Part shown: positions 28,717 to 48,140 of the stretch, piece by piece
Layout of the letters: every line of letters begins with the position of its first letter
Numbering within the stretch: the stretch's first letter is position 1
Virus record (IMG/VR): IMGVR_UViG_3300012983_000030
Reading direction: 5' to 3' (one strand)
DNA: 64,000 nucleotides
DNA from: a virus
Lineage: Duplodnaviria > Heunggongvirae > Uroviricota > Caudoviricetes
Notes under the pieces: model-generated
Seen by the model: the letters and a program-made list of their open reading frames with translations, nothing else
What the model was told of the DNA's origin: nothing
Database searches by the model: none
Made by a program: the position numbers and the translations under genes

Positions 28717-29703
28717 TTACTTTAAGTATTCATAAATAGATTTCATTCCAGGACATCCTGTTTCATCAAATTTTAACTGACAACAGTCAGCATTACAGTA
28801 AGTAAAATATTTACAAATCAGACAAGAAGCAGGAATTTGTTTTTCAAAGTTTATCAATTTATTTTTTAAATCCATATTTATTTGATTTAAATTACCATAT
28901 ATGTTATTAGCCATATTTGGACAAGAAGCAATAGTTCCATTTGGATTAATAGTTATTACTCTTTTCATACATTCTCTTGCTCTACAACCAAGAAATATAC
29001 CTTTAATTGAATTTTCTACACCTTCAAATAATGGTATTATTATATCTGTATTTTTTTCGTATAATTTGTATAATTCAAATAAGTATAAATCTTGATCTTT
29101 ATTTGAAGGTTTGACTTTATTAATAGTAGCTCTACCTGTTTCAGTTATTCTTTCAATATTAAAACGTTTAATGTTTAAATTATTAAAAAAATCAAATATT
29201 TCTTGAGGAATTACGTTTTTAATAACATAATCTGTTAAACAAATTATAGGTTGAACTTCTATATTTTCTTTATGTAATAATTTTACATTGTTAATCCATA
29301 AATTTCTTTCATTATCATTAGAAAATCTTAAATCACCAAAATCATATGATGTCATAATCATACTATTATCATCAAAAGGTTTCATTTTATGAAATAACTT
29401 TAAATGAGTATCAGTTATATTATATATAAGATTAGTAGTTATACACCATCTTAGATTTAAATCTTTAGTTTTATCCAAAAAAGATAATGTTTTATTTATA
29501 TCATACAATAGTGGTTCACCACCATGTAATGAAATATCTATTCTATCGTTTGGATTAGTTTTTTTAAATTCTTTTAACCAAACAATAACTTTTTCTAAAG
29601 TCTCATCAGACATTGAATTATGATTATTCATAATTTCATTATAACAATGTTTGCATTTTAAATTACATCCATTTGTTAATTTTATATAAATATTATAATC
29701 CAT
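28717..29703 (-). CDS. radical SAM protein with SPASM-like domain
   Basis: CNLKCKHC, HGGEP, C-terminal CxxC..CNADCC. Confidence 0.93.
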   Translation of the reverse strand: MDYNIYIKLTNGCNLKCKHCYNEIMNNHNSMSDETLEKVIVWLKEFKKTNPNDRIDISLHGGEPLLYDINKTLSFLDKTKDLNLRWCITTNLIYNITDTHLKLFHKMKPFDDNSMIMTSYDFGDLRFSNDNERNLWINNVKLLHKENIEVQPIICLTDYVIKNVIPQEIFDFFNNLNIKRFNIERITETGRATINKVKPSNKDQDLYLFELYKLYEKNTDIIIPLFEGVENSIKGIFLGCRARECMKRVITINPNGTIASCPNMANNIYGNLNQINMDLKNKLINFEKQIPASCLICKYFTYCNADCCQLKFDETGCPGMKSIYEYLK

Positions 29704-30598
29704 TGTTTATTCCTACACATTTATTACATGTATTTAATTTACCTGATGTTGAATTATTTCTTAATTTATTTGCTTTTTCAGAAAACCATATATCTTCTAA
29801 ATTAGAATTCATAATATTACCTATTGTAAATTCTTCATCTATACCAAATCTACAAAGATTTATATCACCAGTAGTTTTTATATGACATAAATTATATAAA
29901 CCAAAACAAGGTAATTCACATAAATGTTTAAGTATTTTTGAATTATTAGATAAATCTATAAATTTGTTATTTATTTTAGCGGCATGATTATAGATTTGAG
30001 TATAATAGTGTTTATCAACTAAAGTATCTAGGTATTTTGAAAAAGAATCTTGCTCAGAATTATTGTAATAAATAGAAGAAGCAGATATTTGTGTTTTAGA
30101 GTTTATATTATTTCTATATTCAATTAATTCCTGCATATTTTGCATTATCAAATCAAAAGTATCACAACCGGTTACATCTAAATGTGATAATTTATTATAT
30201 CCGTTTAATGAAAATTTAATAGATTTTATGTTATTTTCTACAGCATATTTTAAAGGATCTAATAAAATACCGTTTGTAGTAATAAATATAACGCATTCTG
30301 GGTATGTTTTTTTGACGTATAAGATATAGTTTTTGAATTTTGGATGTAATGTACCTTCACCCATATGAAACAAGCCTATTTCTGGAATTTTTAAGCGTTT
30401 TGCTTCATTTATAACTTTATAAAATATTTCATCAGATATAAAGGATTTAGTATTTTTTAATTTTGGTACAATACAGTATGTACATTTATGATTACAAATG
30501 CTTGCTAATTCAATTTTAATTGATTTTGGTAATGTAATTTTATCAGTATCAATGTTATATGCAATATTTGATACCCTATTTATTATAGAGTCTGTCAT
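29693..30598 (-). CDS. radical SAM protein with Twitch/SPASM-like domain
   Basis: CNHKCTYC, TTNG, G.INLC...IGNI...L.DIW...CNKC. Confidence 0.92.
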   Translation of the reverse strand: MTDSIINRVSNIAYNIDTDKITLPKSIKIELASICNHKCTYCIVPKLKNTKSFISDEIFYKVINEAKRLKIPEIGLFHMGEGTLHPKFKNYILYVKKTYPECVIFITTNGILLDPLKYAVENNIKSIKFSLNGYNKLSHLDVTGCDTFDLIMQNMQELIEYRNNINSKTQISASSIYYNNSEQDSFSKYLDTLVDKHYYTQIYNHAAKINNKFIDLSNNSKILKHLCELPCFGLYNLCHIKTTGDINLCRFGIDEEFTIGNIMNSNLEDIWFSEKANKLRNNSTSGKLNTCNKCVGINNGL

Positions 30599-31493
30599 GT
30601 ATAAAATCAGTTATAATTAGTTTTAAAGCTTCAAATTCGGTTTGATTATTTGGCATACCAAATCTAGTAAAAGTATGATTATCAACAACGAATTTATGAC
30701 AAGGTATATTACTAATAACATCTCCATAAAGAGTTATAAAGTTATTAGTTACATAATCTATAGAAGAAGTCAGTTGTATTAATTCTTCTTTATATCTAGG
30801 TTTATCTATATCAAAATCAGTGTTCATTAACCAAGAAAACGCTAAACTATTTATATATTGTTCTCTTTGTAAAGACATTTTATGATGTAAAGATTTTGGA
30901 TAAATAGCAAAACCCAAACGTAAACCACATCCAATTAATTTATCGAAAGAACCAACTATGATATTTTTTGGATTTTTTAATAAAATCTCAATGCTTTGTT
31001 TCATACAATCTATATTTTGGTAAGTTATATCACATATATTATATTTAGCGGTACTTTCATCTAAATCTTTAATTAAACAGTCATATTCAAAACAAGTTGT
31101 TATACCGCAATTTGAATATAAGACATCTGTTTTTGTATTATAAAAGTCTATTGGAGTTTTGAAACTATTATCTGTTTTATCATAGGTAAATTGTTTATAG
31201 ATAGGCTTGATATCCAAAGCTTCACAATATACTTCTAACATCCTCCATGTTGGACCAGCCCAGCATAATGTTTTTGGTTTTAATGCTAATAACACATTCT
31301 TCATTGTATTTTCACAACCATTGCCTAAAAAGAAAGTATCAGGTTGCAAATTAAAGAGTTCACCAAATTTTTTATAAGCATAATACATATCTGGATATAA
31401 TCGAACATTAGTTGTAAGATATGTATCTTCTCCTGGTTCATTTTGTGTAGATAAACCATAGTTTCTTTGTTTATAAGCTTCTCTTTTTATCAT
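30576..31493 (-). CDS. PLP-dependent enzyme, class I/II aminotransferase (HisC/CobD-like)
   Basis: GNGCE, D..Y, SFDK..G.GLRLGF with the PLP lysine. Confidence 0.75.
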   Translation of the reverse strand: MIKREAYKQRNYGLSTQNEPGEDTYLTTNVRLYPDMYYAYKKFGELFNLQPDTFFLGNGCENTMKNVLLALKPKTLCWAGPTWRMLEVYCEALDIKPIYKQFTYDKTDNSFKTPIDFYNTKTDVLYSNCGITTCFEYDCLIKDLDESTAKYNICDITYQNIDCMKQSIEILLKNPKNIIVGSFDKLIGCGLRLGFAIYPKSLHHKMSLQREQYINSLAFSWLMNTDFDIDKPRYKEELIQLTSSIDYVTNNFITLYGDVISNIPCHKFVVDNHTFTRFGMPNNQTEFEALKLIITDFIHDRLYNK

Positions 31494-32298
31494 TTTCCCA
31501 CCATTTTACAAAATTATCACCAATCATCATACCGTTTATATCACATATTTCACAACATTTAAAGCATTGTCTACCTTTAGCAGAAAGCATACCTTTTCTT
31601 TTCTCTTCTAATATATTTACAAAATAATCGTAGATTGAAGTATTGAAAATATTATATTCAGAAACGCTATGATTATTCCAGTCTGCTTCACATTGTAGAT
31701 AATTACCTGTTGTATCTATAAATATTTTATAAAAAGGATAATTACATCTAGTATTTAATTTTACTTTTTTTGTATTTAAATATCCCGCTCTATTGTAAAT
31801 ATTCATTTGTGGATTTTGCATATCATGATTTCTAAACCAAGCTTTGGTATTTTTGAATTTTTCTTTATATTCATTAATTTTATTCCATTCGTGTACAGAA
31901 ATTTTAATTTGAATGGATGGTCCATAATTTTCTATTTCTTCCCAATCTTCTTTTTTTAATAAAGTACCATTAGATACAATAACTATTTTAAAATTACTCA
32001 ATTCTTTTATAATTTGTTTAAAGTTAGGATTTAATGAAGGTTCACCGAATCCAGCTGTACAAATATATCCTTTATAATTAATATTCATTAAGTATTCTTT
32101 TATTTTTAAAATATTATCTAAAGGCATAAATGTTGGATTATTTGTTTTCCAACCTAAAGATTGAGGACAAAATGGACATCTGAAATTACAAATATTTGAT
32201 AAATTTAATTCAATACTACGTAAACAATCAATAGTAGTTTTGACTTCTACATTCTCTACATCATTTTTCCAAGTATTCATTAAAATAGGATTTTCCAT
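31471..32298 (-). CDS. radical SAM protein with Twitch-like domain
   Basis: CNFRCPFC, GFGEP, NRAG, C.YPF..I.ID..G.Y..C..DW...CEIC. Confidence 0.92.
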   Translation of the reverse strand: MENPILMNTWKNDVENVEVKTTIDCLRSIELNLSNICNFRCPFCPQSLGWKTNNPTFMPLDNILKIKEYLMNINYKGYICTAGFGEPSLNPNFKQIIKELSNFKIVIVSNGTLLKKEDWEEIENYGPSIQIKISVHEWNKINEYKEKFKNTKAWFRNHDMQNPQMNIYNRAGYLNTKKVKLNTRCNYPFYKIFIDTTGNYLQCEADWNNHSVSEYNIFNTSIYDYFVNILEEKRKGMLSAKGRQCFKCCEICDINGMMIGDNFVKWWENDKKRSL

Positions 32299-33054
32299 CT
32301 ATATAACCTTATTTTTATAGTCTATCTTATCATTTGATATAACAATACAAGCTGGAATAGAAGGAAGATTTAAGTATAATGCTGCAAAAACTCGACAATT
32401 ACATGCTATAGGATATAACATATTATTATCGGTGAGTAAAAAACAAAGAGGATACTTAAAACCTTCTTCAGAAAATTTTTGTATCCAATATTCAACCTCT
32501 CCTATTTCTTTCCTTGTAGATATCCATTTATTTTTATTTGTTATATAATTTATTTGATCGAAGCTACTAATGATTCTATCAAAGTTTTTTAAATTTATAA
32601 ATTGTATAAAATTGTCTTTGATTTGAACAAATTTTTCTTCTTTAAATAAACTATAATTATTTTTTAGATTCTCAATATTAAGAACTAAATCGGTAGGAGT
32701 TGGTAAAACAGCATCTTTAAACTTATTTATACTTTTATAATATATACCAAAATTAATATTTATGTCAGTATTAATACTACTATATAAAGTTTTATCTAAA
32801 TGAATAGTATTGTTATCTATAACATAATAATTAAAACCTGGATTTAATGAGCATATATCAGTTACTTCATCATTTTCTGAATGCCACTCGATTTTATTTT
32901 TAAATAAATTGTCAGTTAAATTAATACATGTATCGTATCTATACACTAGTCGTGTTAAAAAATTCCCAAAATCTTTTCTATCATATTTTTTGATATCTAA
33001 TTTTGGGAATAATTCGTTTTTTTCTATGTAATTAGCTATTTCTGTATAATGCAT
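32299..33054 (-). CDS. protein with C-terminal ParB/Srx-like motif
   Basis: GFKYPL...NCRVFAALYLNLPSIPACI. Confidence 0.5.
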   Translation of the reverse strand: MHYTEIANYIEKNELFPKLDIKKYDRKDFGNFLTRLVYRYDTCINLTDNLFKNKIEWHSENDEVTDICSLNPGFNYYVIDNNTIHLDKTLYSSINTDININFGIYYKSINKFKDAVLPTPTDLVLNIENLKNNYSLFKEEKFVQIKDNFIQFINLKNFDRIISSFDQINYITNKNKWISTRKEIGEVEYWIQKFSEEGFKYPLCFLLTDNNMLYPIACNCRVFAALYLNLPSIPACIVISNDKIDYKNKVI

Positions 33055-34070
33055 TATGGAATCATAAAATATGGTTTTAAAAATTCATTTAATTTTTCTT
33101 TATTTACTTCTGGTTTAATGTAATATGAAAAATCATAACTTGCAAAAGGTTCACTAATTATACATGCTGGAATAGATGGTAATCCTAAATATTTGGCAAT
33201 AAGTAGTCTCTTATTTGAAAATAAAGGTAATAATGAACCATCTTTTAATAATTTGAATTGTATTACTTTCTTTAGACCATTTTTTGCAACATCTTTTGCT
33301 AAAACATTTAATTTTGTTTGATTTGCACAGCTGTGACCATAATAAATACTTTCTTCAGTATTATAAATTAAAAATTTATTGTCAACAATATGATTTGTAT
33401 AAAATTCTTTAGGTAAGTTTATATACAAATAATTATAATCAAAATATTTATCTTCTAATGCTTTAAATATACCAAATTTAGTTTCTTTTAATTTAGAAAA
33501 TGTACAAACTTCTGGAATATATTCAAAATGTAATGTATTCTGTACTGTTTTTCCAAAATTTTTAAAGATTTCATAATCTTTTATTCGTTTTGCATAATTA
33601 TAAACAGTAATTTTTACATTAATTGTAGTTTCATCATTTAAATAGTGATAAATAGTCTGTGGAATAACCAATGTATCAGTAATCGCATAGTATATCATTC
33701 CATCATAAAAATAGTCTTTTAGCTTATTGAAATTCTGTTCTGTTATTTCATCATTTTCATTAATGATTACATTTTCAAATTGATTTAAAAAATCTTTTTT
33801 TATTTCAAAATATGCACTTTCAGAAACTGATTGACAATCCTGTTGATTGTTAATGCTCAATGGACATGTATCTAATTCCAATTCTGGACTATATTCAGAA
33901 GTACCTAATTTGCTAACAACAAAATTACGATAATCTTGTTCACTTGAATATGTTATTGGAGAGATATCTTTAGTTTCTGCATATATATCATCACCTTCTA
34001 CATATGCAATATCGTCATTATATTTAAGATCTTCATCTTTTAATATAGATACATCTAACATTTTACTCAT
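33054..34070 (-). CDS. protein with C-terminal ParB/Srx-like motif (paralog of 32299-33054)
   Basis: NGLKKVI...NKRLLIAKYLGLPSIPACI; LPSIPACI is identical in both. Confidence 0.5.
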   Translation of the reverse strand: MSKMLDVSILKDEDLKYNDDIAYVEGDDIYAETKDISPITYSSEQDYRNFVVSKLGTSEYSPELELDTCPLSINNQQDCQSVSESAYFEIKKDFLNQFENVIINENDEITEQNFNKLKDYFYDGMIYYAITDTLVIPQTIYHYLNDETTINVKITVYNYAKRIKDYEIFKNFGKTVQNTLHFEYIPEVCTFSKLKETKFGIFKALEDKYFDYNYLYINLPKEFYTNHIVDNKFLIYNTEESIYYGHSCANQTKLNVLAKDVAKNGLKKVIQFKLLKDGSLLPLFSNKRLLIAKYLGLPSIPACIISEPFASYDFSYYIKPEVNKEKLNEFLKPYFMIP

Positions 34071-34788
34071 AACTTAAATTATCCTTAATAAATTGTTCTA
34101 AACCATCCACAAATTGAGTCCATTCTTCTGGTTGATTCATACCATATAATAAAGTATTAAAAGGTGTATAAATACCTATTGTCTCAAATAATTCATTATT
34201 AGTTTCTGTAAAAACATCATCATAGAAAATAGCTTCTGTTTGTACTTCATCATTAAATAATTCAATAAAAAGAGCTTCTTTAATTAAACCACAAATGTTG
34301 TTATTTATAACTATGCCTTTTTCATGTTTTACATCTTTTAAATCTAATGTAGTATCTTCAAAATCTAATCTAGAAATAGGATATAGAGGCAAAGAATATA
34401 TAAATGTAAGTAATTTCATTAAAAACGATTGATTATTTTTAATGAAGATTTCAATTTCGTTATCATTTAAAATAGATTTCGTTTCAAAATATTGATGAGT
34501 GTATATACTCAAAACTTTTATTAAAGTATTGTTGATTTCTTTAATATTATAAATAATATCACCTTCTAAATAAAACTTAATAAAAGCTTCTTTAAAAGAA
34601 TATTCACATTTTGAAAAATCTAAATCTACATCAAAGTTTGTATTTCTTAAGTAGATATATGAAATTCTAACATTATCTTCTGAATTTATTCCAGGGTAGT
34701 TAATATTACTCATATCAACTATTGCCCCTTTTTCTTTTATTTCATTCATAATGTTAAAATCATAAGGTAAATTAGTAAGTATTTTCAA
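34063..34788 (-). CDS. hypothetical accessory protein of the radical SAM cluster
   Basis: TTG start with AAGGAG RBS; directly follows the candidate substrate gene. Confidence 0.7.
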   Translation of the reverse strand: MKILTNLPYDFNIMNEIKEKGAIVDMSNINYPGINSEDNVRISYIYLRNTNFDVDLDFSKCEYSFKEAFIKFYLEGDIIYNIKEINNTLIKVLSIYTHQYFETKSILNDNEIEIFIKNNQSFLMKLLTFIYSLPLYPISRLDFEDTTLDLKDVKHEKGIVINNNICGLIKEALFIELFNDEVQTEAIFYDDVFTETNNELFETIGIYTPFNTLLYGMNQPEEWTQFVDGLEQFIKDNLSYE

Positions 34789-34800
34789 AATTTTCTCCTT

Positions 34801-35490
34801 TTATCGTCTAGATCTCTGATCATGACAATTACTATGACAATTCAAATGACAAGTATACATATTATATGTTAATTGATTTCCAGTATAACAAGTATTATAC
34901 CAAGAATTATAACAGTTAGTTACAGTATTATTAAAAGAAGCAGCAGTTATTTTAGCACCTGCTGTAATTCCACTGTTTGCAGGATTAAGTGTTATAGATG
35001 TTGTACCTTCTCTAGTCCAAAATTTACTTGGATTACCATTTGCACTATCTGCACCACCGGTTACTGCTGGAAATGTATTATTAAATACTGCTCTTCCAGA
35101 TATTTGACTTTTTAAAACACGTGTACCATATTCATTATGATACCAATTTGCATTAAAATATCTTATCTTATTTAAAGCTTGTGTTACAGAAAGCATGCTT
35201 GACCAAAGAGTACTCGCTTTTATAATTGTATCTGAAATAGTTAAACTAGGAGCAGTTTTAGCATTAAACTGAGCTGTTTCAATAGCTTGTTGTGGATTAG
35301 TAAAATAAGTAGTTTGTGTTGTAGTAGTATAATCTACATTAGCAGTTGCTGCAAATTGAGGTAAATTTCCAGTATGGTATGTAGCAAAATTATAAATAGG
35401 TGTAGATACTCTAGCATTAAAATCGTTTATGCAGCCAATTACGCTTCCAGATGTAGCTTTTCTAATTACTTGTCCTGCTGTTACAGTCAT
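34801..35490 (-). CDS. candidate radical-SAM substrate protein with C-terminal (CHxN)-repeat tail
   Basis: T/N/A/S-rich body ending in TCHLNCHSNCHDQRSRR. Confidence 0.65.
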   Translation of the reverse strand: MTVTAGQVIRKATSGSVIGCINDFNARVSTPIYNFATYHTGNLPQFAATANVDYTTTTQTTYFTNPQQAIETAQFNAKTAPSLTISDTIIKASTLWSSMLSVTQALNKIRYFNANWYHNEYGTRVLKSQISGRAVFNNTFPAVTGGADSANGNPSKFWTREGTTSITLNPANSGITAGAKITAASFNNTVTNCYNSWYNTCYTGNQLTYNMYTCHLNCHSNCHDQRSRR

Positions 35491-36390
35491 TTATTTCTCC
35501 ATACTTTCTATTATTTTATATAAACCTGAACAGTATGGTTTTTTAAAATCTACTAAATGCTCAGCTTTACATTTTTTATAATACTTACATAAATTACATT
35601 GTTCAAAATATAATTTTTCTTCTATTTTACAGTGTTTTTCCCATTCGGTTAAAGAGTTAAATTCTATATTTTGTTCAATATCACCATTATATATAATGGA
35701 ACTATAATTACCGCTTGGATTTATAAATAGAAAACTATTCATTGTTGGAACATATTTGTCATCATTTAATATAATTTTATTAGTTATTTCAAAGCTATAA
35801 TTACCTTCACTATGATATTTTAATATATCATATAAAAATTTTACATATTCTTTTGTTGTAATATTATATTTGAATGAATTGTTGATTGAAGGATGATATT
35901 GAATGAAAAAAACGTCATGACCTAATTTTTCATAAAAATCTAATAAATCTTTTGTGTTTTTATTTAATATAGATGGTAAAACAACTATTGCTAATTCATG
36001 TTTAGTTTTTAGTTGTCGTAAATTATATAAAGTATTTTTATAATTATCTCTTTCTTCATTTAAAGAAATAGATACAGGTATATTATATTGATTACAAAAA
36101 TCAATGAATTTTATATTTGAAAGATTTGTAACAAAAGAAATATTATACTTTTCTAATAGTTTTATTAATCGTAAAAGATATTCATTTGGCAATAAAGATA
36201 TTTCTCCACCATATATTGAAATATGATGAATATTATATTGGTCTTCTAATTCAATCAAGCGCTCTTTTAGTATATTTAAATCTAAGACAGTTTTATCTTT
36301 TTTTAAATCACCAAGATAACAATATCTACAGTTAAAATTACAATAAAAAGATGGAATTATTGAGAGTTGTAAGGGTTTTTTTGTATCCAT
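35491..36390 (-). CDS. radical SAM protein
   Basis: CNFNCRYC, YGGEISLL, C-terminal CxxC...C..EH...CSG. Confidence 0.93.
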   Translation of the reverse strand: MDTKKPLQLSIIPSFYCNFNCRYCYLGDLKKDKTVLDLNILKERLIELEDQYNIHHISIYGGEISLLPNEYLLRLIKLLEKYNISFVTNLSNIKFIDFCNQYNIPVSISLNEERDNYKNTLYNLRQLKTKHELAIVVLPSILNKNTKDLLDFYEKLGHDVFFIQYHPSINNSFKYNITTKEYVKFLYDILKYHSEGNYSFEITNKIILNDDKYVPTMNSFLFINPSGNYSSIIYNGDIEQNIEFNSLTEWEKHCKIEEKLYFEQCNLCKYYKKCKAEHLVDFKKPYCSGLYKIIESMEK

Positions 36391-37520
36391 TTTTTATATC
36401 TTTCTTTTATTTCAGGATTTTCTTCAATATATTTATGAGCACGTTTATATGGACAATCAGTTGGAGTAAAACCTTCAAATACAACAGAAACCCAACATGG
36501 CATTTGACAAGTTTTATAATATTCACAATTTAAACAACCTCTTTTCATCATACCAAGAGATAATTTTATATCGCTCACATTTTCTTCAGTAATTATATCT
36601 GCGTATTTACCATAAAACATTTCTGCCGGTAAAATAGATGCTCTTTTTACACAATCTACTGTCGCTTGACCATTTGAATATTGTACACAAGTTTTACAAT
36701 CACAATAGTGTTGAGGTATATAGATTCCTTCATTTATAGTTGTGTTTACTAAATTACTAATAACATTTATATAATATAAATCATTATCTAAACCCCATTT
36801 AAAAAATGTAAATAAATCATCATCATTTGGTAATAATTCTTTCCAATTTGGATTAGCGGTATAAAAATTTATATCATATCTTTCATTAAAATCTAGTCTA
36901 TCTAAATCAGATTTTCCAGATACATATTCTTCTATTGTCTTTTTAGTTAAAGTAATTGATAAACAATTAAAGCATTTCATTTCGTGAAAATATTTTACGT
37001 TAGATATCATTAATTCTTTTTGCTTTTCAGAAGAAAATCTACCACTAGGATCATAGCTGAAACCTATTGTACCATTTGAATATTTTAATATATCTAGTAC
37101 TCTATCACGTTTTGTAAATACTCCGTTTGTTAACCAAGAGTATTTCAGTGTTATTTTTGGAAATTCTGTTTTAAACAAGTTATTAAAAGTATCTACAAAA
37201 TTTTTATATTCTTGAAACAATGAATCTGGCAAACCATCAAAAAATAGCTCACCTCCCCATAACCGAACATTAACTTCTTGTATATTAGGATATTGTTTAA
37301 AATCTTTTCGTACAGCTTTCATTACTTCAAAAGGAATATTTCTAATATAATTTAAATCAATTTTATTATTTCTATGTCCTTCGAAACAAAATTTACATTT
37401 TAAGTTACAAGCTTCAAATAAAGAGCAAGCTATTTCATAAGATTTTGGATCTTTATAAAAAGGTATTTTAGGTAATTCAGATGGCATATCAATATTACTT
37501 ATATCTAATAACTTACTCAT
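36357..37520 (-). CDS. radical SAM/SPASM protein
   Basis: CNLKCKFC, WGGE, C-terminal CLNCEYYKTCQMPC. Confidence 0.93.
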   Translation of the reverse strand: MSKLLDISNIDMPSELPKIPFYKDPKSYEIACSLFEACNLKCKFCFEGHRNNKIDLNYIRNIPFEVMKAVRKDFKQYPNIQEVNVRLWGGELFFDGLPDSLFQEYKNFVDTFNNLFKTEFPKITLKYSWLTNGVFTKRDRVLDILKYSNGTIGFSYDPSGRFSSEKQKELMISNVKYFHEMKCFNCLSITLTKKTIEEYVSGKSDLDRLDFNERYDINFYTANPNWKELLPNDDDLFTFFKWGLDNDLYYINVISNLVNTTINEGIYIPQHYCDCKTCVQYSNGQATVDCVKRASILPAEMFYGKYADIITEENVSDIKLSLGMMKRGCLNCEYYKTCQMPCWVSVVFEGFTPTDCPYKRAHKYIEENPEIKERYKKWIQKNPYNSQ

Positions 37521-38310
37521 TTATTACTCTTTCATATAATTTTTTAGGAAAGCTACACACATGTTGTAATTTACAAGGTTTACATTTTCCAGCTAATTTA
37601 CAAGTTAAACATTCTTTTAATACGAACTCTTTTTCGTTTTGAGGACAACCTCTTTTTAGTTCTCCATTTGGATATAAAGTAAAAATATTATCGCAATCAC
37701 AATTCCAATTTAGTACTCTATCCTTGATTATATTTTTAAATTTAAATTTCCATTCTTTGTCTATTTTACATAACCATTCATCGGCTTGTATGTGTAAATC
37801 ATTTTTTATATTATAATCAATCAGATGTTCGAATAAAATTCCTTCTATTGCATTATAATTATTCCATTCATATAAATATTTTAGAAAACTTGATATTTCT
37901 AAATCAATTAAATCTTTTGTCATAGTTATTAAAACAATACATTTCATATCATATTTTTCTAATAACTTTAAATTATTTAGCCAAAGTGTATATTGTTTAT
38001 CAGTGAATCGTTGCAAATTCCAAGAAGTTGCTATGGAAATCTCTTTTTGTTTTAATATTTTAATAATATTTTCGTCTAGCAATAACAAATTGGTTGAAAT
38101 AGATGTAATTTTATTACTATTAATCAATTTTAAATATCTGTCTTTGTGTAAAAGAGGTTCACCTCCGAATAATACATTTTCTGAAAAATTAGTTTCAGAA
38201 AAAGCTTTGTAAAAAGAATTTTCATTGAAATCATCTTTTCGTAAATGTAATTCACAATGCGGGCAGTTTAGATTACATGTAAAATTAGGAATGATGTATA
38301 ATTTGCTCAT
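37513..38310 (-). CDS. radical SAM/SPASM protein
   Basis: CNLNCPHC, FGGEP, TSWN..RFT, Cys-rich C-terminus. Confidence 0.93.
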   Translation of the reverse strand: MSKLYIIPNFTCNLNCPHCELHLRKDDFNENSFYKAFSETNFSENVLFGGEPLLHKDRYLKLINSNKITSISTNLLLLDENIIKILKQKEISIATSWNLQRFTDKQYTLWLNNLKLLEKYDMKCIVLITMTKDLIDLEISSFLKYLYEWNNYNAIEGILFEHLIDYNIKNDLHIQADEWLCKIDKEWKFKFKNIIKDRVLNWNCDCDNIFTLYPNGELKRGCPQNEKEFVLKECLTCKLAGKCKPCKLQHVCSFPKKLYERVINE

Positions 38311-40161: not shown

Positions 40162-40554
40162 TTATAAATCCACTAAAAATTCTTTTTTACAGTAAGCTAT
40201 TGTTTTTTCTATAGAAGGATATTTCCAAACATTACCTATTTTCAATAATATATAGTCATATCCTTTTTTATATCTAGAATACGTATATTCTTTGAAGTAT
40301 TTATCATCAGGTAACAATTCTTCATCATCTAATAATTCATAAAAAGGTATATTAAATAATTCTTCTAACACTTTAGCATAAACAATTGCCACAAAAATAC
40401 TTTTTGCTGGATATATTAATTTTGATTCAGTTTTAAAAAATTTAATTACTTGTTGATTTATTCGTTTAAAATCAACAGTATATTCTAAATTAACATCATC
40501 CCATTCATTTATTGAATAAGATAATAACCTTCTTTGTTTTAAATCATTTCGCAT
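40162..40554 (-). CDS. hypothetical protein heading the left radical-SAM operon
   Basis: 130-aa ORF abutting the first rSAM gene. Confidence 0.7.
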   Translation of the reverse strand: MRNDLKQRRLLSYSINEWDDVNLEYTVDFKRINQQVIKFFKTESKLIYPAKSIFVAIVYAKVLEELFNIPFYELLDDEELLPDDKYFKEYTYSRYKKGYDYILLKIGNVWKYPSIEKTIAYCKKEFLVDL

Positions 40555-40630: not shown

Positions 40631-41155
40631 ATGAAAATAGAGGGAAATATACAAACTGCTACGAAGTTTTATGTTCGTACTTCAACTGGCGATATAAAAT
40701 GGGTACCAAGTTTAGAAACAGCAAAGCGTTATATTAATAATCCTGCTAATACTAATTGGTATTTACAAACTATATATGCCACAAATGAAGATATCGTAAA
40801 AGGCTATGATGGTAAAAATTATTTAAGATCTGAATTACCAGATACTCCAGTAGAGTATAAAAAGATAAATGATTTTGAAATTTTTAAAAGTCAAGCTTTT
40901 TCTTTTTTACGAGCACGCTTAAAAGACTTTGCAGAAAAGTATAGTTATGAATCAATTGAAGAGATTATATCTTGGAAAGATTCTTCTATTTTAGATTTAA
41001 ATTTACTTGCAGTTAAAGCATTTAAATATAGAGATTTGTGTTATTGTTATTATTTAGAAGCATTAGAAAAATATGAAATAGAATTTGATAATAGTTTACT
41101 TGATAACAATACTAAATTTTATGAAAAATATATAAATAATTTTCCAAAATTTTAA
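40631..41155 (+). CDS. hypothetical protein, resembles tail-fibre-assembly-associated proteins
   Basis: GYDGKNYL and YESI....SW.DS...A..A..YRD..Y pattern. Confidence 0.45.
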   Translation: MKIEGNIQTATKFYVRTSTGDIKWVPSLETAKRYINNPANTNWYLQTIYATNEDIVKGYDGKNYLRSELPDTPVEYKKINDFEIFKSQAFSFLRARLKDFAEKYSYESIEEIISWKDSSILDLNLLAVKAFKYRDLCYCYYLEALEKYEIEFDNSLLDNNTKFYEKYINNFPKF

Positions 41156-41169: not shown

Positions 41170-41871
41170 ATGAAAAATGAATTGATAAAATACTTGAATG
41201 ACAATGCTAATGTAAAATATATTCAAAATGAAAATGATATAGAGATTTCTGTATTATCTACAATTTCAGAAGAATGCTTAATTTCAACATTAGGTAATAT
41301 ATTTGCAATAGAAAACAAAGCAGTTGAAAATAAAGAAGAATTATATATTAAATTATCACTTAGGGAGTTAAATACTAAACAATTAATAGCTGCATTTAAA
41401 TTTGTATTAAATCAAGATACAATAAATGATAGTTTAACAATATTAAATATTCTCAATTTAATTAAGAGCAATACTTTAGAAGAATCATTTTTTGAAGATA
41501 AAAATGTATACTCTAAGTCTTTGGTTGAATATTTAGACGTTAAATTAGAAATAAAAGATGAATTAAAAGAATTTGTTAAAAAGTTTAGCTTTTATTTCTA
41601 TTCAATGATTAAATCATGTGGAAAACCAATTGCCAATGGTAAAGATACTGTTGTAAAATTGCCAGATGTATACTATAATATTTTTGTTTCTTTAGATTTC
41701 ATGACACTTTCTAGAATTGCAGCGACTTGTGATGATGTAAATTTAGCAGATTGTGGATATATAAGTTGTGCAAGAGAATTAATTTATAATTCATTGAAAG
41801 ATTATTTTATAGGTAATACAATGTTAAATATGTTTTTAGAGGGTTTAGATAATGCCGATGATTGCGAATAA
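41170..41871 (+). CDS. hypothetical accessory protein
   Basis: 233 aa; overlaps the start of the poly-Ser protein. Confidence 0.7.
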   Translation: MKNELIKYLNDNANVKYIQNENDIEISVLSTISEECLISTLGNIFAIENKAVENKEELYIKLSLRELNTKQLIAAFKFVLNQDTINDSLTILNILNLIKSNTLEESFFEDKNVYSKSLVEYLDVKLEIKDELKEFVKKFSFYFYSMIKSCGKPIANGKDTVVKLPDVYYNIFVSLDFMTLSRIAATCDDVNLADCGYISCARELIYNSLKDYFIGNTMLNMFLEGLDNADDCE

Positions 41872-42505
41872 TGTAATAACATATTCTGATGTTATTAACC
41901 ATGTTACAAATAAAATAGTAAAGGCTTGTGCTAATGCTGATAAATTTACATCAGATGTGCATTATTCTTTAAAGAATCAAACATCATTTACTTTGATTAA
42001 AGATACTGTTTCACCAAAAGGACAAAATGCTTATGTTAATGTAAAAGTAAATGATGCTCTTGGTGTTACTGTAAGTTCATCTACTATTAAAAATCAATTA
42101 AATGACTTTTTAACATCTCGTGGTGTAAAAACTCAATCTAATAAACCAATTTCAATGAAAGGTATGATGAATTTATATAATAATATAGCAACTTTTATTA
42201 CTCGAAGATTAGTTGTTGTAAATTCATCTTTTAATATTGGTAAACAATTAATTTTTTATAATGCGACTAGTAATTTATCATACAATACAGTAAATTTTGG
42301 TAATTTTAATGAATTAAATTTTAATGGTACTGAAATGCAAGCTTGTATTAATAATTTGATGAATTCATTAAATCAAAAAGTAAAAGTAAAATATATAAAC
42401 ACAGTAATTACAAACACTTGTTCATCAAGTTCAAGCTCTTCTTCAAGTTCTTGTTCTTCAAGTTCGTCATCGAGTTCAATGTTTATTGCATATATGGATA
42501 TCTAA
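41852..42505 (+). CDS. candidate radical-SAM substrate protein with C-S10-C-S8 tail
   Basis: C-terminus TCSSSSSSSSSSCSSSSSSSSMFIAYMDI, encoded by mixed TCN/AGY codons. Confidence 0.65.
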   Translation: MPMIANNVITYSDVINHVTNKIVKACANADKFTSDVHYSLKNQTSFTLIKDTVSPKGQNAYVNVKVNDALGVTVSSSTIKNQLNDFLTSRGVKTQSNKPISMKGMMNLYNNIATFITRRLVVVNSSFNIGKQLIFYNATSNLSYNTVNFGNFNELNFNGTEMQACINNLMNSLNQKVKVKYINTVITNTCSSSSSSSSSSCSSSSSSSSMFIAYMDI

Positions 42506-42506
42506 A

Positions 42507-43079
42507 ATGCCTTTGTATAATGTAAAATATTCTGATATAACAACACCAGTTTTGAATTATATGTTAAACAATTGTCAAAATCTAGATAGTAGATTTGATT
42601 CAATTCCATTATGTTTTAAAGCAGGATATTCAATTACAGTAAATCAAAGTCATACTTGGAGTAAAAAGAGTAAAGCCTTTAAAGGTTGTCAATATATTCC
42701 TATATATAGATATACTATTCAAGGAAAAGTTATCAATAAATATACAGCAGCTCAAGTTCGTCAAGATTTTACTAGCAAATTTAATACAAGTGATGCAATA
42801 GTACCGAATCATCAATTTTATGAGCTTTTAATAAATTTAATTAATTATGCTTCTAGTAGAATGGCAATATTTTCTAGTCAATTTAGTCCAAACGTTAACT
42901 ATTTAGCATATGTAATGGAAAATACAGTTACCCATCCAATGGATGATCCACATCCTCCTTTAGTGACAGCAACTACAACGGAAGATTTATTAACATATCT
43001 TACTCAAATGTTAAATTCTAATGTATATAATGTTGTATGTCAATATAAATATGAATATATATCAAGCAGAGAGTTTTGA
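42507..43079 (+). CDS. paralog of 41852-42505 lacking the Ser tail
   Basis: Start re-called to ATG 42507; shares YSD, C.N.D and (S)SxF motifs and spacing. Confidence 0.6.
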   Translation: MPLYNVKYSDITTPVLNYMLNNCQNLDSRFDSIPLCFKAGYSITVNQSHTWSKKSKAFKGCQYIPIYRYTIQGKVINKYTAAQVRQDFTSKFNTSDAIVPNHQFYELLINLINYASSRMAIFSSQFSPNVNYLAYVMENTVTHPMDDPHPPLVTATTTEDLLTYLTQMLNSNVYNVVCQYKYEYISSREF

Positions 43080-43102
43080 TATTTTTCTAAAAGGAGTAAT
43101 TA

Positions 43103-43966
43103 ATGTCATGCAAACCCATTTATGAATTTTTATTATGGGATAACTGTAATAATAATTGTAAATTTTGTTTTCAAAGAGAATTACCTCGTTTGTTTGGTCT
43201 TAAACAACGAGAACAAATTTTAAATAAAACTATTGATTTTATAAATTCTGATGATTTCATTAAAGGAAGTCATGTTTTAGTAGTAGGTGGTGAAATTTTT
43301 GACAAACCTACTGATTTTAATATACTCTATACATTTTTTGAAGATATAATAAATAAGATGTTAAACGATGATATCGAGTATTTATATTTAAATACTAATT
43401 TATTATACAAAGATTTATCCGGTTTATATCGAGTTTTAACATTATTAAATGAAAACTCATTATTACATAGGTTAAAATTTACAACATCATATGATTTTGA
43501 AGGTAGATTTAAAACAAAAGATGATGAAGCACTTATGTTAAGTAATCTTGAAAAGTTAAAATGGTTATTTCCAAATATTAATATTGTAGTAAATATGATT
43601 TTAACAAATAAAGCCTGTGAGTATATATTAAACGATAAATTTGATTTTATGAATTTTAGACAAAAATATGATGTAGAAATTAATTTATTACCATATATCA
43701 TTTACGATTATAATTTATCAGCTCCCAAAGAAAAAGTATTTAAAACTTTACAAAAAATACAAGATTTAGATAAAAATTATATTGAAAACTATATTAAAAA
43801 TTTTGATTTGAATCAAGATAAATTATTATTTGTTTATAAAAATGATAATTATGAATTTTGTAGTTGTGAACATGGAAGTTGTGGACATTCTATTAACTTT
43901 AAAAGATATTCTACTGAAAATACATGTTTTGTATGTGATTTAAAGGAGTTTTTTAATGGAAAATGA
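43103..43966 (+). CDS. radical SAM protein
   Basis: WDNCNNNCKFC, GGEIF, TSYD..GRF, CGH...CFVCD. Confidence 0.92.
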   Translation: MSCKPIYEFLLWDNCNNNCKFCFQRELPRLFGLKQREQILNKTIDFINSDDFIKGSHVLVVGGEIFDKPTDFNILYTFFEDIINKMLNDDIEYLYLNTNLLYKDLSGLYRVLTLLNENSLLHRLKFTTSYDFEGRFKTKDDEALMLSNLEKLKWLFPNINIVVNMILTNKACEYILNDKFDFMNFRQKYDVEINLLPYIIYDYNLSAPKEKVFKTLQKIQDLDKNYIENYIKNFDLNQDKLLFVYKNDNYEFCSCEHGSCGHSINFKRYSTENTCFVCDLKEFFNGK

Positions 43967-44882
43967 TGATTTTTTACAATATGAAATCTGGAAAGACTGT
44001 AAAAACGGATGTAAATTTTGTACAAACTTTAAACAAAAAGATATTGATAAAATTTCATCATTAAAATATATTTTAACAGACTTAGATTTAAGAAAAAATG
44101 ATAAAATAGCAGACATTGGCTTTATCGGTGGTGAATTTTTTGATGATCAGCTTGATAATCAAGAAGTTAGAATGTTATTTTATCAACTTTTTGATTGGTG
44201 TGAACAAAAACTTAAAAATAATACTTTAAAAAGAGTTTTTATAACAAGTTGTTTAATTTTTGATATACAAAACAGCTTAATTCCTTTTTTAGATTACTTA
44301 CGTGATAAAAATATATTAGATAAAGTGATGCTTTGTACATCATATGACATAAAATATAGATTTTATACCGAAAAACGTAAAAAATTATGGGAAGATAACA
44401 TGCTATTTTTACATGAAGCTTATCCAGAATTAAAAATACATACTCAAACAATTATGACTCAATTTTTTATTGATGCTGTACTAAATAATGAGTTTGATAT
44501 TAAAGCTTTTTGTGAAAAATATCATACTTTTATAGATTATAACGAACCTCAATCTGGATTTTTCTATGATAAACAAGGAATGTATAAAGCAATTCCTGAC
44601 TTTTTTCCAACTAAAGAGAGCTTTAGTAAATTTTTATTAAAAACTGTTATACAAGATAGAGTAATTAATCCTTCTACATTTTTAATACGAGATTTACATT
44701 GTAGTGAATTAGATTATATTTATGATGGGGAACGTAAAAAACTATTTAATAGAAGAAATAAAGAAAATTATTACTTAACCCCAGGACAAAAAAATTCTAA
44801 TGAATTAGGATTTATAGATTCTGATATTAAAATGGCAGACTTAGCACAAGAAATTCTTGAAAGTTTTGGAGAATTTGAATGA
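43956..44882 (+). CDS. radical SAM protein
   Basis: QYEIWKDCKNGCKFC, GGEFF, TSYD..YRF; lacks the C-terminal Cys motif. Confidence 0.92.
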   Translation: MENDDFLQYEIWKDCKNGCKFCTNFKQKDIDKISSLKYILTDLDLRKNDKIADIGFIGGEFFDDQLDNQEVRMLFYQLFDWCEQKLKNNTLKRVFITSCLIFDIQNSLIPFLDYLRDKNILDKVMLCTSYDIKYRFYTEKRKKLWEDNMLFLHEAYPELKIHTQTIMTQFFIDAVLNNEFDIKAFCEKYHTFIDYNEPQSGFFYDKQGMYKAIPDFFPTKESFSKFLLKTVIQDRVINPSTFLIRDLHCSELDYIYDGERKKLFNRRNKENYYLTPGQKNSNELGFIDSDIKMADLAQEILESFGEFE

Positions 44883-45829
44883 TTTTAGGAAACAAATTTA
44901 AAAATCATAGCATGGTACAGTATGGAGTATGGCCAAATTGCTGTAATAATTGTGCTTTTTGTTTAAGAGAAGAAAGAAGACCTTATTCAAAAGAAGAGCA
45001 ATTACTCTGGTTAGATAGAATTAAGAAAAATATCACACTAATAGATTGGGAAAATCAATTTTCTTTTGGTATTTCTTTACTTGGAGGCGAATTATACTTT
45101 ATTACAGATAAAGATTTACAAGAGTCTTTTCTTGAATTGATAGATGTAATAATTGAAAAGGTTTTAAAAGTATCTAAAAATCCAAGTTGCAAGTATTCTA
45201 CTGTTACAAATGGTCTTTATAATCCAGAATTTTTATATAAAGTTATTGATAAAATAGTAAATAGTGTTGGTATACAATATGTAGATGTTAATTTTTCTTT
45301 TGATTTAAAATATCGTTTTAAAAATGAAGAAGATAAACAGTTAGTGCTTAAAAATATTAATGACTTTCATAATAGATATGACTATTGTGTTGGTGTACAA
45401 ATGATTCTTACTCAATACTTAATAGATTTATGGAAAGATAATAAATTTACAGTATCTGAGTTTGAAAACAAATATATTCCAGGAAATGTATTAACTTTTT
45501 TATATCCACACCCTATTCATACCGGCTTGAATTTAACTGATTTTAATTTTAATAGACCAGATTTTTTAAGATTTTTGAATTATTTAAAAGAAAGTAATTA
45601 TAGTACGTATTTATCCTTTTTACATTCTACAAAAAATTCATGTAAGTTTAAATATACAGGTCTAAGAGATAGAAAAGATGATAGCTATTTATATCAACCC
45701 GCTCTATCTGATGGTAAAGAAATAATTAATCCTAATTGTGGACACAGTACTTTATATAAATGTTATACAGATTGTGATAAATGTTTATTATGTGATTTAG
45801 AAAATCTAGATGAAGATGCTTATGTATAA
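44879..45829 (+). CDS. radical SAM protein
   Basis: WPNCCNNCAFC, GGEL, SFD..YRF, CGH...CLLCD. Confidence 0.92.
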   Translation: MILGNKFKNHSMVQYGVWPNCCNNCAFCLREERRPYSKEEQLLWLDRIKKNITLIDWENQFSFGISLLGGELYFITDKDLQESFLELIDVIIEKVLKVSKNPSCKYSTVTNGLYNPEFLYKVIDKIVNSVGIQYVDVNFSFDLKYRFKNEEDKQLVLKNINDFHNRYDYCVGVQMILTQYLIDLWKDNKFTVSEFENKYIPGNVLTFLYPHPIHTGLNLTDFNFNRPDFLRFLNYLKESNYSTYLSFLHSTKNSCKFKYTGLRDRKDDSYLYQPALSDGKEIINPNCGHSTLYKCYTDCDKCLLCDLENLDEDAYV

Positions 45830-45838
45830 GGAGTTATT

Positions 45839-46786
45839 ATGAAGAAACAATTACAATTTGAAATATGGGAAGAATGTAACTCTAAGTGTAAGTTTTGTTA
45901 TCTAGGAAAAAACAATCTTCTTACTCCAAATCATGTAAAATTAAAGTCATTACAATTAATTTTAGATAAAATATCTGATTTATCTATATATGACGAATAT
46001 GATGTTATTTCATATTTAGGTGGAGAATTTTTTCAAGGCCAATTAAATACTCCTGAAATAAAAGAATTATTTTTTAAATTAATGGAAGAAACTGCATGGT
46101 TATTGGAAAATAAATATATACGTGAAGTTTGGATATATGCAACATTAACAATAGGTAATCAAGAAGATTTATATAAAAGTTTAGAATATTTTAAACAAAA
46201 AGAGGGTTTATGGATATTAACTTCTTATGATACATTAGGAAGATTTCATACTAAAAAAATGGAAGATAATTGGAAGTATCATATGAAAAATTTACATAAA
46301 TTGTATCCAGAAATCAAATTTAATACGACTACGATTTTATCAGATGATTGTATAGACAAATATTTATCTGGTGAATTGTCATTTAAACAAATGATGGAAG
46401 AATTTCATACTGCTTTCTTTTTTAAACAGTGTGGACTAGGAGACTGTACAAAAGAAGAAATGAATGAAAGATTACCTGGTTTTTTAACTACTCGTGATAA
46501 ATTTCTAAAGTTTTTGACAAAATTTAAACAAGATGAATCAGAACATATGTGGACTAAGTTGTTTAATATTCAATATAGAGCAGATACTTTATATAGAAAT
46601 TTTAATGATGATAGACATATGCAAATAACTATTAGAAATAAAGATAAAAAAGCAGAATTAACCACAGACAATGAGATTGAAATGCAATTAAATGAATGTG
46701 GACATCCCTTATCTTATGCAACTTATTTAGATTCTAATAAATGTGCATTATGTGATAAGCAACTTATTGAAGAAACTGTAATTTAA
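45839..46786 (+). CDS. radical SAM protein
   Basis: QFEIWEECNSKCKFC, GGEFF, TSYD..GRF, CGH...CALCD. Confidence 0.92.
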   Translation: MKKQLQFEIWEECNSKCKFCYLGKNNLLTPNHVKLKSLQLILDKISDLSIYDEYDVISYLGGEFFQGQLNTPEIKELFFKLMEETAWLLENKYIREVWIYATLTIGNQEDLYKSLEYFKQKEGLWILTSYDTLGRFHTKKMEDNWKYHMKNLHKLYPEIKFNTTTILSDDCIDKYLSGELSFKQMMEEFHTAFFFKQCGLGDCTKEEMNERLPGFLTTRDKFLKFLTKFKQDESEHMWTKLFNIQYRADTLYRNFNDDRHMQITIRNKDKKAELTTDNEIEMQLNECGHPLSYATYLDSNKCALCDKQLIEETVI

Positions 46787-46796
46787 GGAAAATATT

Positions 46797-47249
46797 ATGT
46801 TTAAAGTAGTAATTGAAGATAATGTTAAATATTTAGCTTGTACAGAAGATTTGGTATTAAATGCTTTTTCAAAAAATATGTTTAATACACAAATAAAGTT
46901 CTCTACTAGAAAAGAAGAAATATTGTTTTTTAAAGATAAAGTATTTTCAGATGACATTTTTGTATCATCTGGTGTTTTTAGTAATGAAAAAGACAAAGAG
47001 TTAAAAATAACGATTATAAATATATCTGATACTCAAGTAGTTATTCCAGCTGATACTAAGTTAGTAAAAGTTGAATCTTTGACAGCTTATGATGAATCTA
47101 AAAATTATATATCTGGAAATAAAATATATGATCAAAATGGCATAGAAGTATATAATGAAAATGAAGAATTAGCAGTAGCTTCTGTAGAAATGCTTGAAAC
47201 AGAAGATCATAAACCAACTGTAATACAAATTAATTTTAAAGACAAATAA
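46797..47249 (+). CDS. hypothetical protein, possible degenerate dUTPase fold
   Basis: SGVF......ELKITIINIS....VIP..T.L resembles dUTPase motif III-IV without the catalytic Asp. Confidence 0.4.
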   Translation: MFKVVIEDNVKYLACTEDLVLNAFSKNMFNTQIKFSTRKEEILFFKDKVFSDDIFVSSGVFSNEKDKELKITIINISDTQVVIPADTKLVKVESLTAYDESKNYISGNKIYDQNGIEVYNENEELAVASVEMLETEDHKPTVIQINFKDK

Positions 47250-48140
47250 ATGAAAAAAGCAATACGAGTACATATATTACCTTTATATAGATGCGATATA
47301 AATTATTCGTATTGCTTATATCATTCTATTAAAAATGATAAAAATACTTTGGATTTAGTGACACTAGATAATAAACTTTCTGAGATAAGCACAAAATATG
47401 ATATTGTGCAAATTAACATTGCAGGAGGTGAAATATCATTACTATCTGATTTTTATTTTGAAATGCTTTATAACCTTTGTAAAATTTACTGTAAAAAAAT
47501 ACAGGTTTTTACTTCTTTCTTTAAAGTGAATAAATCTCTGATAAATAGCTGTGAAGTTATAAATGTACTTTATAATTTTTTAAATCCTAATAAAATGGTG
47601 GTTAGTAATATTCAAGCTGCTGTAGCAAGTGATAAAATTATAAACTTAAAAGCATTTGATATTTATTGCAACGATGACACTATACAAATGATTAATCATA
47701 TAAATACAATGAAAGTAAAATCATTTGAAATATTGCCATATATAAAATCAACAGAAGATTATACTTTTTGTGAAAATAAAATTAAAGACTTTTTAAAAAA
47801 TTCAAATAAAATGAAATTTGCATTTCAAAATAAATTACAATTAGACAAAATATTACAAATAGATAACTATAATGTTAAAAATATATTTATTTTACCAAAT
47901 GGTAAATATGGACTACAAACTTTTGAAAACAATAACTTTTTCTTTAAAGAATATGACGAAATAGAAGAATTTTCAAAAAATATTGAAGAATTAGAAATTT
48001 TTCGCGATAAAATTTGCAAAAATTGTACTTCTAAATTACAGTGTATGGCTAATTACTTTTTAAACCTCAGTTACGTTGGAAAATCATGTTGTGGATTTAA
48101 AGACTTAGTAGAAGATTATAAAAAAGGTAGGCAGCAATGA
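47250..48140 (+). CDS. radical SAM-like protein with degenerate cluster motif
   Basis: CDINYSYC instead of CxxxCxxC; GGEISLL; paralog of 35491-36390. Confidence 0.8.
   Translation: MKKAIRVHILPLYRCDINYSYCLYHSIKNDKNTLDLVTLDNKLSEISTKYDIVQINIAGGEISLLSDFYFEMLYNLCKIYCKKIQVFTSFFKVNKSLINSCEVINVLYNFLNPNKMVVSNIQAAVASDKIINLKAFDIYCNDDTIQMINHINTMKVKSFEILPYIKSTEDYTFCENKIKDFLKNSNKMKFAFQNKLQLDKILQIDNYNVKNIFILPNGKYGLQTFENNNFFFKEYDEIEEFSKNIEELEIFRDKICKNCTSKLQCMANYFLNLSYVGKSCCGFKDLVEDYKKGRQQ

Follow-up and report, generated by a model that had tools for sequence, protein, structure and literature searches.

Two back-to-back radical-SAM cassettes in a ruminant-gut jumbo phage, most likely for modification of the phage's own proteins

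Why would a phage carry 13 genes of the radical S-adenosylmethionine (SAM) type in one place? The window, a 64,000-nucleotide stretch of the viral record IMGVR_UViG_3300012983_000030 (Caudoviricetes), holds such a cluster at 28717-48140. A first-pass annotation described it as one mega-cluster built around two tailed, substrate-like proteins. We found that both proteins are present but that the cluster, rather than being a single system, consists of two cassettes that move independently and happen to lie back to back. The pair is real, conserved, and uncharacterized, and most likely serves to modify proteins of the phage itself after translation. We propose that the phage probably cross-links proteins of its own particle with chemistry of the type that makes peptide antibiotics.

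Six-frame translation bore out the count of 12 open reading frames (ORFs) with an intact CxxxCxxC motif and one degenerate copy. The motif lies near the N terminus of eight minus-strand ORFs (28717, 29693, 31471, 35491, 36357, 37513, 38285, and 39205, each named by its first coordinate) and four plus-strand ORFs (43103, 43956, 44879, and 45839), and no further window ORF of at least 100 amino acids has it within the first 60 residues. In these 12, it is combined with a downstream GGE motif in a radical-SAM domain, as expected of the superfamily; the degenerate 47250 lacks this combination. All 12 intact enzymes match Pfam Radical_SAM or PHROG 1802, many of them under the curated cut-off. The two operons do diverge from a 76-nucleotide gap at 40555-40630, and neighboring genes in each arm overlap or lie at most 23 nucleotides apart. 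Each arm has the expected tailed protein (34801-35490 and 41852-42505) and acidic neighbor (isoelectric points, 4.4 and 4.6). Profile scans matched no transporter or peptidase family in the cluster, as the annotation had also read it. Every gene tested has a dN/dS of 0.01 to 0.33. We ruled out an assembly artifact, because independent contigs from other studies cross the junction and the gene order recurs on the 241-kb contig to which L044 belongs (compared loci carry L numbers).

We placed 136 radical-SAM enzymes from 20 loci in a similarity network, a check that the annotation had proposed, and found that the two arms separate. The minus arm (cassette 1) has four core subfamilies, which we call A (28717..29703), B (35491..36390), C (36357..37520), and E (39205..40161). 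It also has a subfamily of gut-phage versions related to A, called D (37513..38310 and its lineage-specific duplicate 38285..39217, which scores 136 bits to 37513 by phmmer), and an optional pair, 29693 and 31471. The four plus-arm genes (cassette 2; 43103..46786) form a separate clan with dN/dS values of 0.01 to 0.10. The idea that each arm has its own set of paralogs therefore holds in the network except for 47250, which falls outside the plus-arm set.

The cassettes occur apart as well as together. Cassette 1 is found with no cassette 2 nearby in the cultured jumbo phages Atu_ph07, RSL2, DT01, S13, and Phosso and in L009; in the cultured phages, it follows structural genes. Cassette 2 lies beside tail-fiber-like genes without cassette 1 in L001-L005, L012, and L014, and the tailed protein of cassette 1 finds no match in the 282-kb record (74% complete) from which L001 comes. 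L016 and L031 have the two in divergent orientation, and L017 has them in tandem. A search with one cassette 2 enzyme and the tailed protein of cassette 2 gave no match in cultured phages. The tailed proteins stay next to homologous radical-SAM enzymes in many phages, so the synteny search that the annotation had called for did not refute its proposal. The symmetry of the two arms could not be traced to homology: the probabilities obtained were 0.8% and 13% for the tailed proteins and 0.1% for the acidic proteins. The order of helices and strands is nonetheless similar in the models of the two tailed proteins.

The tailed protein of cassette 1, candidate substrate 1 (34801..35490, minus strand), has 229 amino acids: a folded domain of about 213 residues and a C-terminal (C-H-x-N/S)3-RxRR tail, which the model gives at low confidence from residue 217. 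Its family comprises 136 representatives at 50% identity, and while mean column identity of the alignment is 24%, CHxxCH is kept in 113 of the 136 and the RxRR end in 120. When loci were found with the 28717 enzyme alone, the tail gene lay beside the enzyme in 16 of 19 (12 of 15 with near-duplicates merged). Among the compared loci, this gene, rather than the pyridoxal phosphate (PLP) enzyme or ParB-like genes, is the constant companion. Acidic partner protein 1 (34063..34788, minus strand; isoelectric point, 4.36), of no known family, is nearly always beside it and aligns with Atu_ph07 gp169 and DT01 gp64.

The tail follows a grammar. In each repeat, an aromatic residue, with or without a Cys ahead of it, is followed by a free position and then S/N/D; the period is 4 when the Cys is there and 3 when it is not. 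In 367 of about 440 cases, the aromatic residue does have a Cys before it; the residue after Cys is His (331) or Tyr (35) and almost nothing else, and Trp appears in Cys-free units. In internal units, Gly, which has no C-beta, occurs 17 times at the position after the aromatic residue (+1) and never at +2 (shuffles, 8.6 ± 2.0; minimum, 2), and S/N/D occupies +2 in 212 of 242 (shuffles, 180 ± 4). The 45 units that came from enzyme-led searches show the same Gly and S/N/D pattern. Across 14 strains of this phage, four different residues occur at +1 position 220 and five at +1 position 224, with no variation at the +2 positions. In L019 and L020, where the same enzymes lie alongside, the tails are Cys-free or Cys-poor but still have the aromatic-x-S/N/D triplet and RxRR; that of L020 has no Cys and reads W-Y-D/W-S-N/H-S-Q. 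A comparison of loci with Cys-free and Cys-containing tails singled out no Cys-acting enzyme. Triceptides are defined by an aromatic-X2-X3 motif with a C-beta-bearing X3 (PMC11499958), and the substrate 1 tail has this motif.

The annotation had suggested that the modified proteins are associated with the virion or its fibers. For cassette 1, a homologue provides evidence for this. By tblastn against cultured phages, neither tailed protein gave a match at E 0.01; the link for substrate 1 came through the enzymes and Foldseek: its model matches a 296-amino-acid Atu_ph07 protein, gp170 (E 4e-5), and also a 178-amino-acid protein of the size of DT01 gp65. The corresponding proteins of RSL2 and S13 are gp68 and gp72. 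The mass computed for gp170, 31.89 kDa, agrees with the table in PMC6102473. In that study, 8 peptides covering 35% of gp170 were detected in Atu_ph07 particles, and the protein was most abundant in band 1, at the top of the gel (PMC6102473, Table S5). Among the 34 proteins of 25 to 40 kDa with at least 3 peptides, gp170 is the only one that peaks in band 1; most peak in bands 7 and 8. This migration fits a very stable or covalent oligomer and is no proof of enzyme-made links. The radical-SAM enzymes adjoining gp170 are absent from the Atu_ph07 virion proteome list. We consider it likely that substrate 1 is a virion component in the phage studied here. For cassette 2, the suggestion has behind it only the neighboring fiber genes of relatives, and placing substrate 2 in the virion is correspondingly tentative, at somewhat under an even chance.

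Which enzyme might act on the tail? None reached a curated family cut-off, and QueE, MoaA, NrdG, viperin, and other small-molecule families were not near theirs. The possibility raised in the annotation, that the enzymes map to known cofactor or nucleotide pathways, thus found no support, as no enzyme reached the cut-off of any named family of that kind. The named cyclophane-synthase families (XyeB, GrrM, FxsB, YhhB, and AmcB) also scored well under their NCBIfam cut-offs. The best family matches of 28717 are peptide and protein maturases, with DynA (NF041298) at the top. Subfamily A has a complete eight-Cys SPASM domain, aligned with that of the anaerobic sulfatase-maturating enzyme (anSME), and in Atu_ph07, RSL2, DT01, S13, and Phosso its gene is the one immediately upstream of the tail gene. 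Given the eight-Cys domain, the DynA match, and this position, we take subfamily A as the best candidate for an enzyme that would close a ring from the aromatic residue to a C-beta. In anSME, the Asp directly after the third SPASM Cys is the catalytic base; subfamily A has an invariant Pro there (Pro262), and no sulfatase is nearby. Formylglycine chemistry, which the annotation had listed among the options, is thus unlikely for the 28717 enzyme. Enzyme 29693 has a SPASM/Twitch domain as well (PF13186). In the cassette 2 clan, three enzymes have a short Cys-containing auxiliary region, and 43956 lacks those Cys residues.

Candidate substrate 2 (41852..42505, plus strand) has a folded domain of about 190 amino acids, a disordered Ser/Cys run, and an FIAYM end. 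Its 24 relatives share a Ser run with 1 to 4 Cys and the invariant FIAYM end; Cys is present in every tail, at a variable position. The serine codons of the run are a mixture of TCN and AGY. We therefore rejected an origin by slippage and concluded that the tail is selected at the protein level. The gene order of this cassette is conserved among relatives, and three of the clan enzymes are strongly conserved (dN/dS, 0.01 to 0.02). The substrate 2 model had no match in BFVD or the Atlas. Against PDB folds, the models of both tailed proteins reached a Z score of 4.2 to 4.5 at best, which argues for neither a known nor a new fold.

We think it likely that these are two phage protein-maturation cassettes and that the product of cassette 1 is built into the virion. 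According to this model, the radical-SAM/SPASM enzymes of cassette 1 would act post-translationally on the C-terminal tail of the 229-amino-acid protein, which they would recognize by its folded domain and terminal RxRR and not by a cleaved leader. The core reaction would most likely be triceptide-like: the S/N/D that stands two residues beyond each His, Tyr, or Trp would lose a hydrogen from its C-beta, and the ring would close onto the aromatic side chain. Further changes, such as ones at the optional Cys, would probably come from the other cassette 1 enzymes. The finished protein would then be built into the virion, where it may form a rigid tip for attachment or stability. Cassette 2 would follow the same logic with an unrelated enzyme clan and a poly-Ser/Cys tail, the reaction being perhaps thioether formation, epimerization, or Ser oxidation. 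That the tails are modified at all seems to us probable; that the link is of the cyclophane type is an even call; and any biological role for the matured proteins is proposed with low confidence.

Several points weigh against this model. The genes, their conservation and synteny, the tail grammar, and the gp170 homologue in virions are observations; that the tails are modified is an inference, and no modification was observed. The high migration of gp170 could come from an SDS-resistant fiber oligomer or from disulfides, and the tail fibers gp288, gp327, and gp472 likewise run high. The best cyclophane-synthase scores are 30 to 77 bits against cut-offs of 310 to 650. There are about three tail sites for 5 to 8 enzymes, and subfamily C reaches up to 8 copies with no longer tail; because enzymes outnumber sites, many of them may have other targets. 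Three loci found through the enzyme (L018, L024, and L027) show no tail in the available stretch, and in two of them the cassette is cut by the end of the locus. Part of the substrate 1 family set was found with a tail-containing profile, and its members are related to one another. Since the aromatic +2 position is also Cys +3, a thioether at C-beta equally explains the avoidance of Gly in Cys-containing tails. Substrate 2, finally, has no cultured representative.

The last two-way reading of +2 leads to a rival that we regard as less likely but give serious weight: the tails would carry Cys-centered thioethers of the ranthipeptide or sactipeptide type, on a CxxxC repeat, and not aromatic cyclophanes. 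The Cys so often placed ahead of the aromatic residue speaks for it, as do the solved structures nearest the subfamily A profile, which include anSME and 5WGG (which we take to be a CteB-type enzyme), and the weak match of one distant relative to TIGR04117, the model for Cys-Xaa-Xaa-Xaa targets. For cassette 2, with its 1 to 4 Cys among Ser per tail, this chemistry leads. In cassette 1, the site after Cys takes almost only His or Tyr, and the same enzymes accompany the L019 and L020 tails, which have little or no Cys and yet keep the triplet and RxRR; because of those Cys-free tails, we favor the cyclophane reading. Cys-His repeats can also bind metals, and the tails might be unmodified metal-binding or scaffold sites (His/Cys ligands for Fe-S or Zn delivery), the tailed protein being an accessory subunit of a complex with some other product. 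We find this improbable. The excess of enzymes over sites would suit it, as would the PLP genes like those of sulfur metabolism in cassette 2 relatives, but Tyr or Trp can replace His, Cys can be missing, and a poly-Ser run is a poor ligand. Moreover, gp170 is in virions and the adjoining enzymes are not in that proteome.

Two further rivals concern the product and its place of action. The enzymes might make a small molecule, a cofactor, or a hypermodified DNA base, with the tailed genes as passengers. Radical-SAM and PLP enzymes do build thymidine hypermodifications in other phages (PMC8989533), the clusters of Campylobacter phages have been read as metabolic (PMC2853527), 2-oxoglutarate (2OG) oxygenases and dihydrofolate reductase (DHFR) lie within the RSL2, S13, and DT01 cassettes, and the optional trio 29693/30576/31471 with the ParB-like genes could be a side pathway. 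Set against these are the constant presence of the tail gene, the position of cultured-phage cassettes after structural genes, the distance of QueE, MoaA, NrdG, and viperin from their cut-offs, and the failure of any nucleotide-modifying family, nucleobase kinase, or amino-acid:DNA transferase to match among the cluster genes; we give this reading only a slim chance. Alternatively, the matured proteins might act in the infected cell or its envelope, in superinfection exclusion or counter-defense, and not as parts of the particle. HxsA, a His-x-Ser repeat protein that is matured by radical-SAM enzymes and has basic repeats, stops phage DNA entry (PMC13128918), and the tails here are basic too; a similar tail also occurs on the protein with a hydrophobic N terminus in L034, in a bacterial-looking context. 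Neither window tailed protein has an evident signal peptide at its start, however, and gp170 is well covered in virions. We judge this, too, unlikely.

We compared the cassettes with known systems. Triceptide synthases (HaaB, YhhB, HtkB, XncB, and ChlB; PMC11499958) share aromatic-X-X3 motifs with His/Tyr/Trp in a C-terminal core and a radical-SAM/SPASM architecture without N-terminal extension, and YhhB and AmcB are among the better NCBIfam matches here. Unlike those systems, the cassette has a folded, virion-type target of about 200 amino acids, a C-terminal RxRR, no protease or transporter, 5 to 8 enzymes in place of one, and scores far under the cut-offs. In the HXS system (HxsA-D), two radical-SAM enzymes with a small partner mature a full His-x-Ser repeat protein, and the system is bacterial, periplasmic, and defensive (PMC13128918). 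HXS involves a signal peptide, a peptidoglycan-binding domain, and N-terminal cleavage, whereas the genes here are phage-borne; TIGR03977/03978 score 19 to 30 bits against cut-offs of 268/370 (HxsB/HxsC), there was no HxsA or HxsD match, and the tailed proteins matched no family. DynA cross-links aromatic residues, including His. It is the best full-length NCBIfam match of 28717 (E 1.8e-21), but at 77 bits against a cut-off of 450, and there is neither a short precursor nor an export system here. anSME (PDB 4K36-4K39) modifies whole proteins, and its SPASM Cys pattern aligns over residues 11-307; it differs in its Asp at the place of the invariant Pro, and no sulfatase is near the cluster. Nor is this a classical system of ribosomally synthesized peptides that are modified post-translationally (RiPPs), as the targets are folded proteins of 217 to 229 amino acids with no short leader precursor, and no protease or transporter family occurs in the cluster.

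The annotation had overlooked several cassette genes. In cassette 1, these are a PLP-dependent aminotransferase/decarboxylase-like gene resembling HisC/CobD (30576..31493, minus; TIGR01141, E 3e-6), found among the compared loci only in L009; two ParB/Srx-like paralogues (32299..33054 and 33054..34070, minus), related by alignment; and a small conserved member (40162..40554, minus; phrog_20737) with homologues in most cassette 1 loci. The ParB-like assignment is a lead: 33054 matched an Atlas structure with a TM score of 0.74 by target over 110 amino acids, from a low-confidence model, and the ParB-like genes had no sequence match in Pfam or PDB. Gene 33054 is kept in gut-phage versions of cassette 1. 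Of the optional enzymes, 29693 (29693..30598, minus; PF04055 and PF13186) has clear orthologues only in L009 and L017, and 31471 (31471..32298, minus; PF04055, E 1.6e-16) only in L009. The PLP enzyme, second ParB-like gene, and 29693/31471 pair, all optional, could form a side branch that makes a small molecule or could supply an extra tailoring step. Cupin, 2OG-Fe(II) oxygenase, and DHFR-like genes are interspersed among those of cassette 1 in L007, L008, and L042, which come from phages with aerobic hosts; none were seen in gut-phage versions. Subfamily C, with 3 to 8 copies in some phages, is expanded to 5 to 8 tandem divergent copies in L018 (1528-9418) and L019 (4149-10020), where the L019 tail is not longer; this suggests further targets.

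The plus arm opens with a 174-amino-acid ORF (40631..41155) that has no known family and was not seen in the other cassette 2 loci compared; its C-terminal half is, we presume, like tail-fiber assembly proteins, a likeness that no family match supports. In most relatives, the gene for acidic partner protein 2 (41170..41871) is the one immediately upstream of the poly-Ser gene, and a tail-less paralogue of substrate 2, also overlooked, follows that gene (42507..43079; hhalign probability, 86%; E 5.5e-6). Behind the enzymes are a 150-amino-acid ORF (46797..47249), with distant homologues inside cassette 2 of L001-L005, and the degenerate 47250..48140, all on the plus strand. The latter has Tyr for the second motif Cys and joins the 35491 family (subfamily B) in the network. 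The second Cys is lost in 14 of 14 full-length strain variants and the first also in 6. We rejected a pseudogene, as the frame is intact and under purifying selection (dN/dS, 0.08), and describe it as a noncatalytic radical-SAM-fold paralogue. Cassette 2 of relatives contains PLP-fold genes that are absent from the window cluster (L001:13026-14015, L014:11799-12803, and L012:14834-15856). One has a Cys/Met metabolism match; the others look by eye like cysteine desulfurases, seemingly without the usual Lys. L005 has an extra 248-amino-acid gene (14007-14753), in one strain only, possibly a homing endonuclease.

Other observations touch the tail and its surroundings. L034 encodes a 128-amino-acid protein (7132-7518) with a hydrophobic N terminus and a (C-H-x-A)-repeat tail ending in RGWR, among seven or more radical-SAM genes and a ComGB-like gene in a Pseudomonadales metagenome-assembled genome (MAG). 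The same tail grammar may exist here in a bacterial, exported form. Both cassettes are often preceded by a gene ending in a conserved ALE-motif domain (L006:11605-13428, L001:8450-9175, L010:8301-9692, L029:2461-4002, and L021:1061-1756); the Atu_ph07 member, gp176, is a virion protein.

The source is a ruminant-gut jumbo phage. The window has a GC content of 26.6% and codes for a head maturation protease, a portal, a glycoside hydrolase family 19 endolysin, and tail-fiber-like proteins; its proteins also occur on contigs of 218 to 241 kb, and several studies yielded near-identical DNA from sheep, cattle, and other animal gut metagenomes. Because the MAG labels on L030-L033 contradict one another, we assigned no host. 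The divergence point is the strand switch of the whole window and not peculiar to the cluster: the minus strand carries 34.2 of the 36.5 kb of ORFs to its left, the plus strand carries 20.7 of the 21.9 kb to its right, and GC skew changes sign there. The plus arm continues into SbcC/SbcD-like genes. A bidirectional terminator-like hairpin (28013-28042), between the converging genes 26367-28007 and 28044-28349, closes the minus arm, and promoter-like sites were no more frequent than in shuffles. GroEL- and GroES-like genes (20968-22948, minus), recognized by inspection, are kept in L016 and L031. A 283-amino-acid orphan gene (2581-3432, minus) has a homologue at 13001-13888 of L012, within the poly-Ser cassette. 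Homologues of window genes 2055 and 3436/4203 directly flank that cassette in L012 and L014; the orphan may therefore be what is left of a cassette that once stood there.

What would such cassettes mean for phage biology? Bacterial peptide natural products and a few whole proteins are known to be cross-linked by radical-SAM enzymes, and our literature search found no report of this for a virus particle. Clusters of 8 to 12 radical-SAM genes have been described in Campylobacter phages CP220/CPt10 (PMC2853527) and Aeromonas phage 332-Vera, in the latter within the structural gene cluster (PMC12390700), with no substrate proposed. Since tblastn with three window enzymes found no match in the Campylobacter phages, their enzymes are not close homologues. 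We entertain, at slightly less than even odds, a broader view: diverse jumbo phages (Rak2-related, Chiangmaivirus-type, and gut lineages) may use portable multi-enzyme cassettes to equip virion proteins with RiPP-type macrocycles and possibly with inter-subunit cross-links as well, with two chemically different cassettes stacked here and several radical-SAM subfamilies perhaps catalyzing new reactions, notably on poly-serine. If true, this would give a reason for the 8 to 15 radical-SAM genes of some jumbo phages, an oddity known since 2010 without a substrate, and would add at least six uncharacterized enzyme subfamilies with a predicted target motif. With cassette 1 in cultured phages and its candidate substrate already in one virion proteome, the proposal is directly testable.

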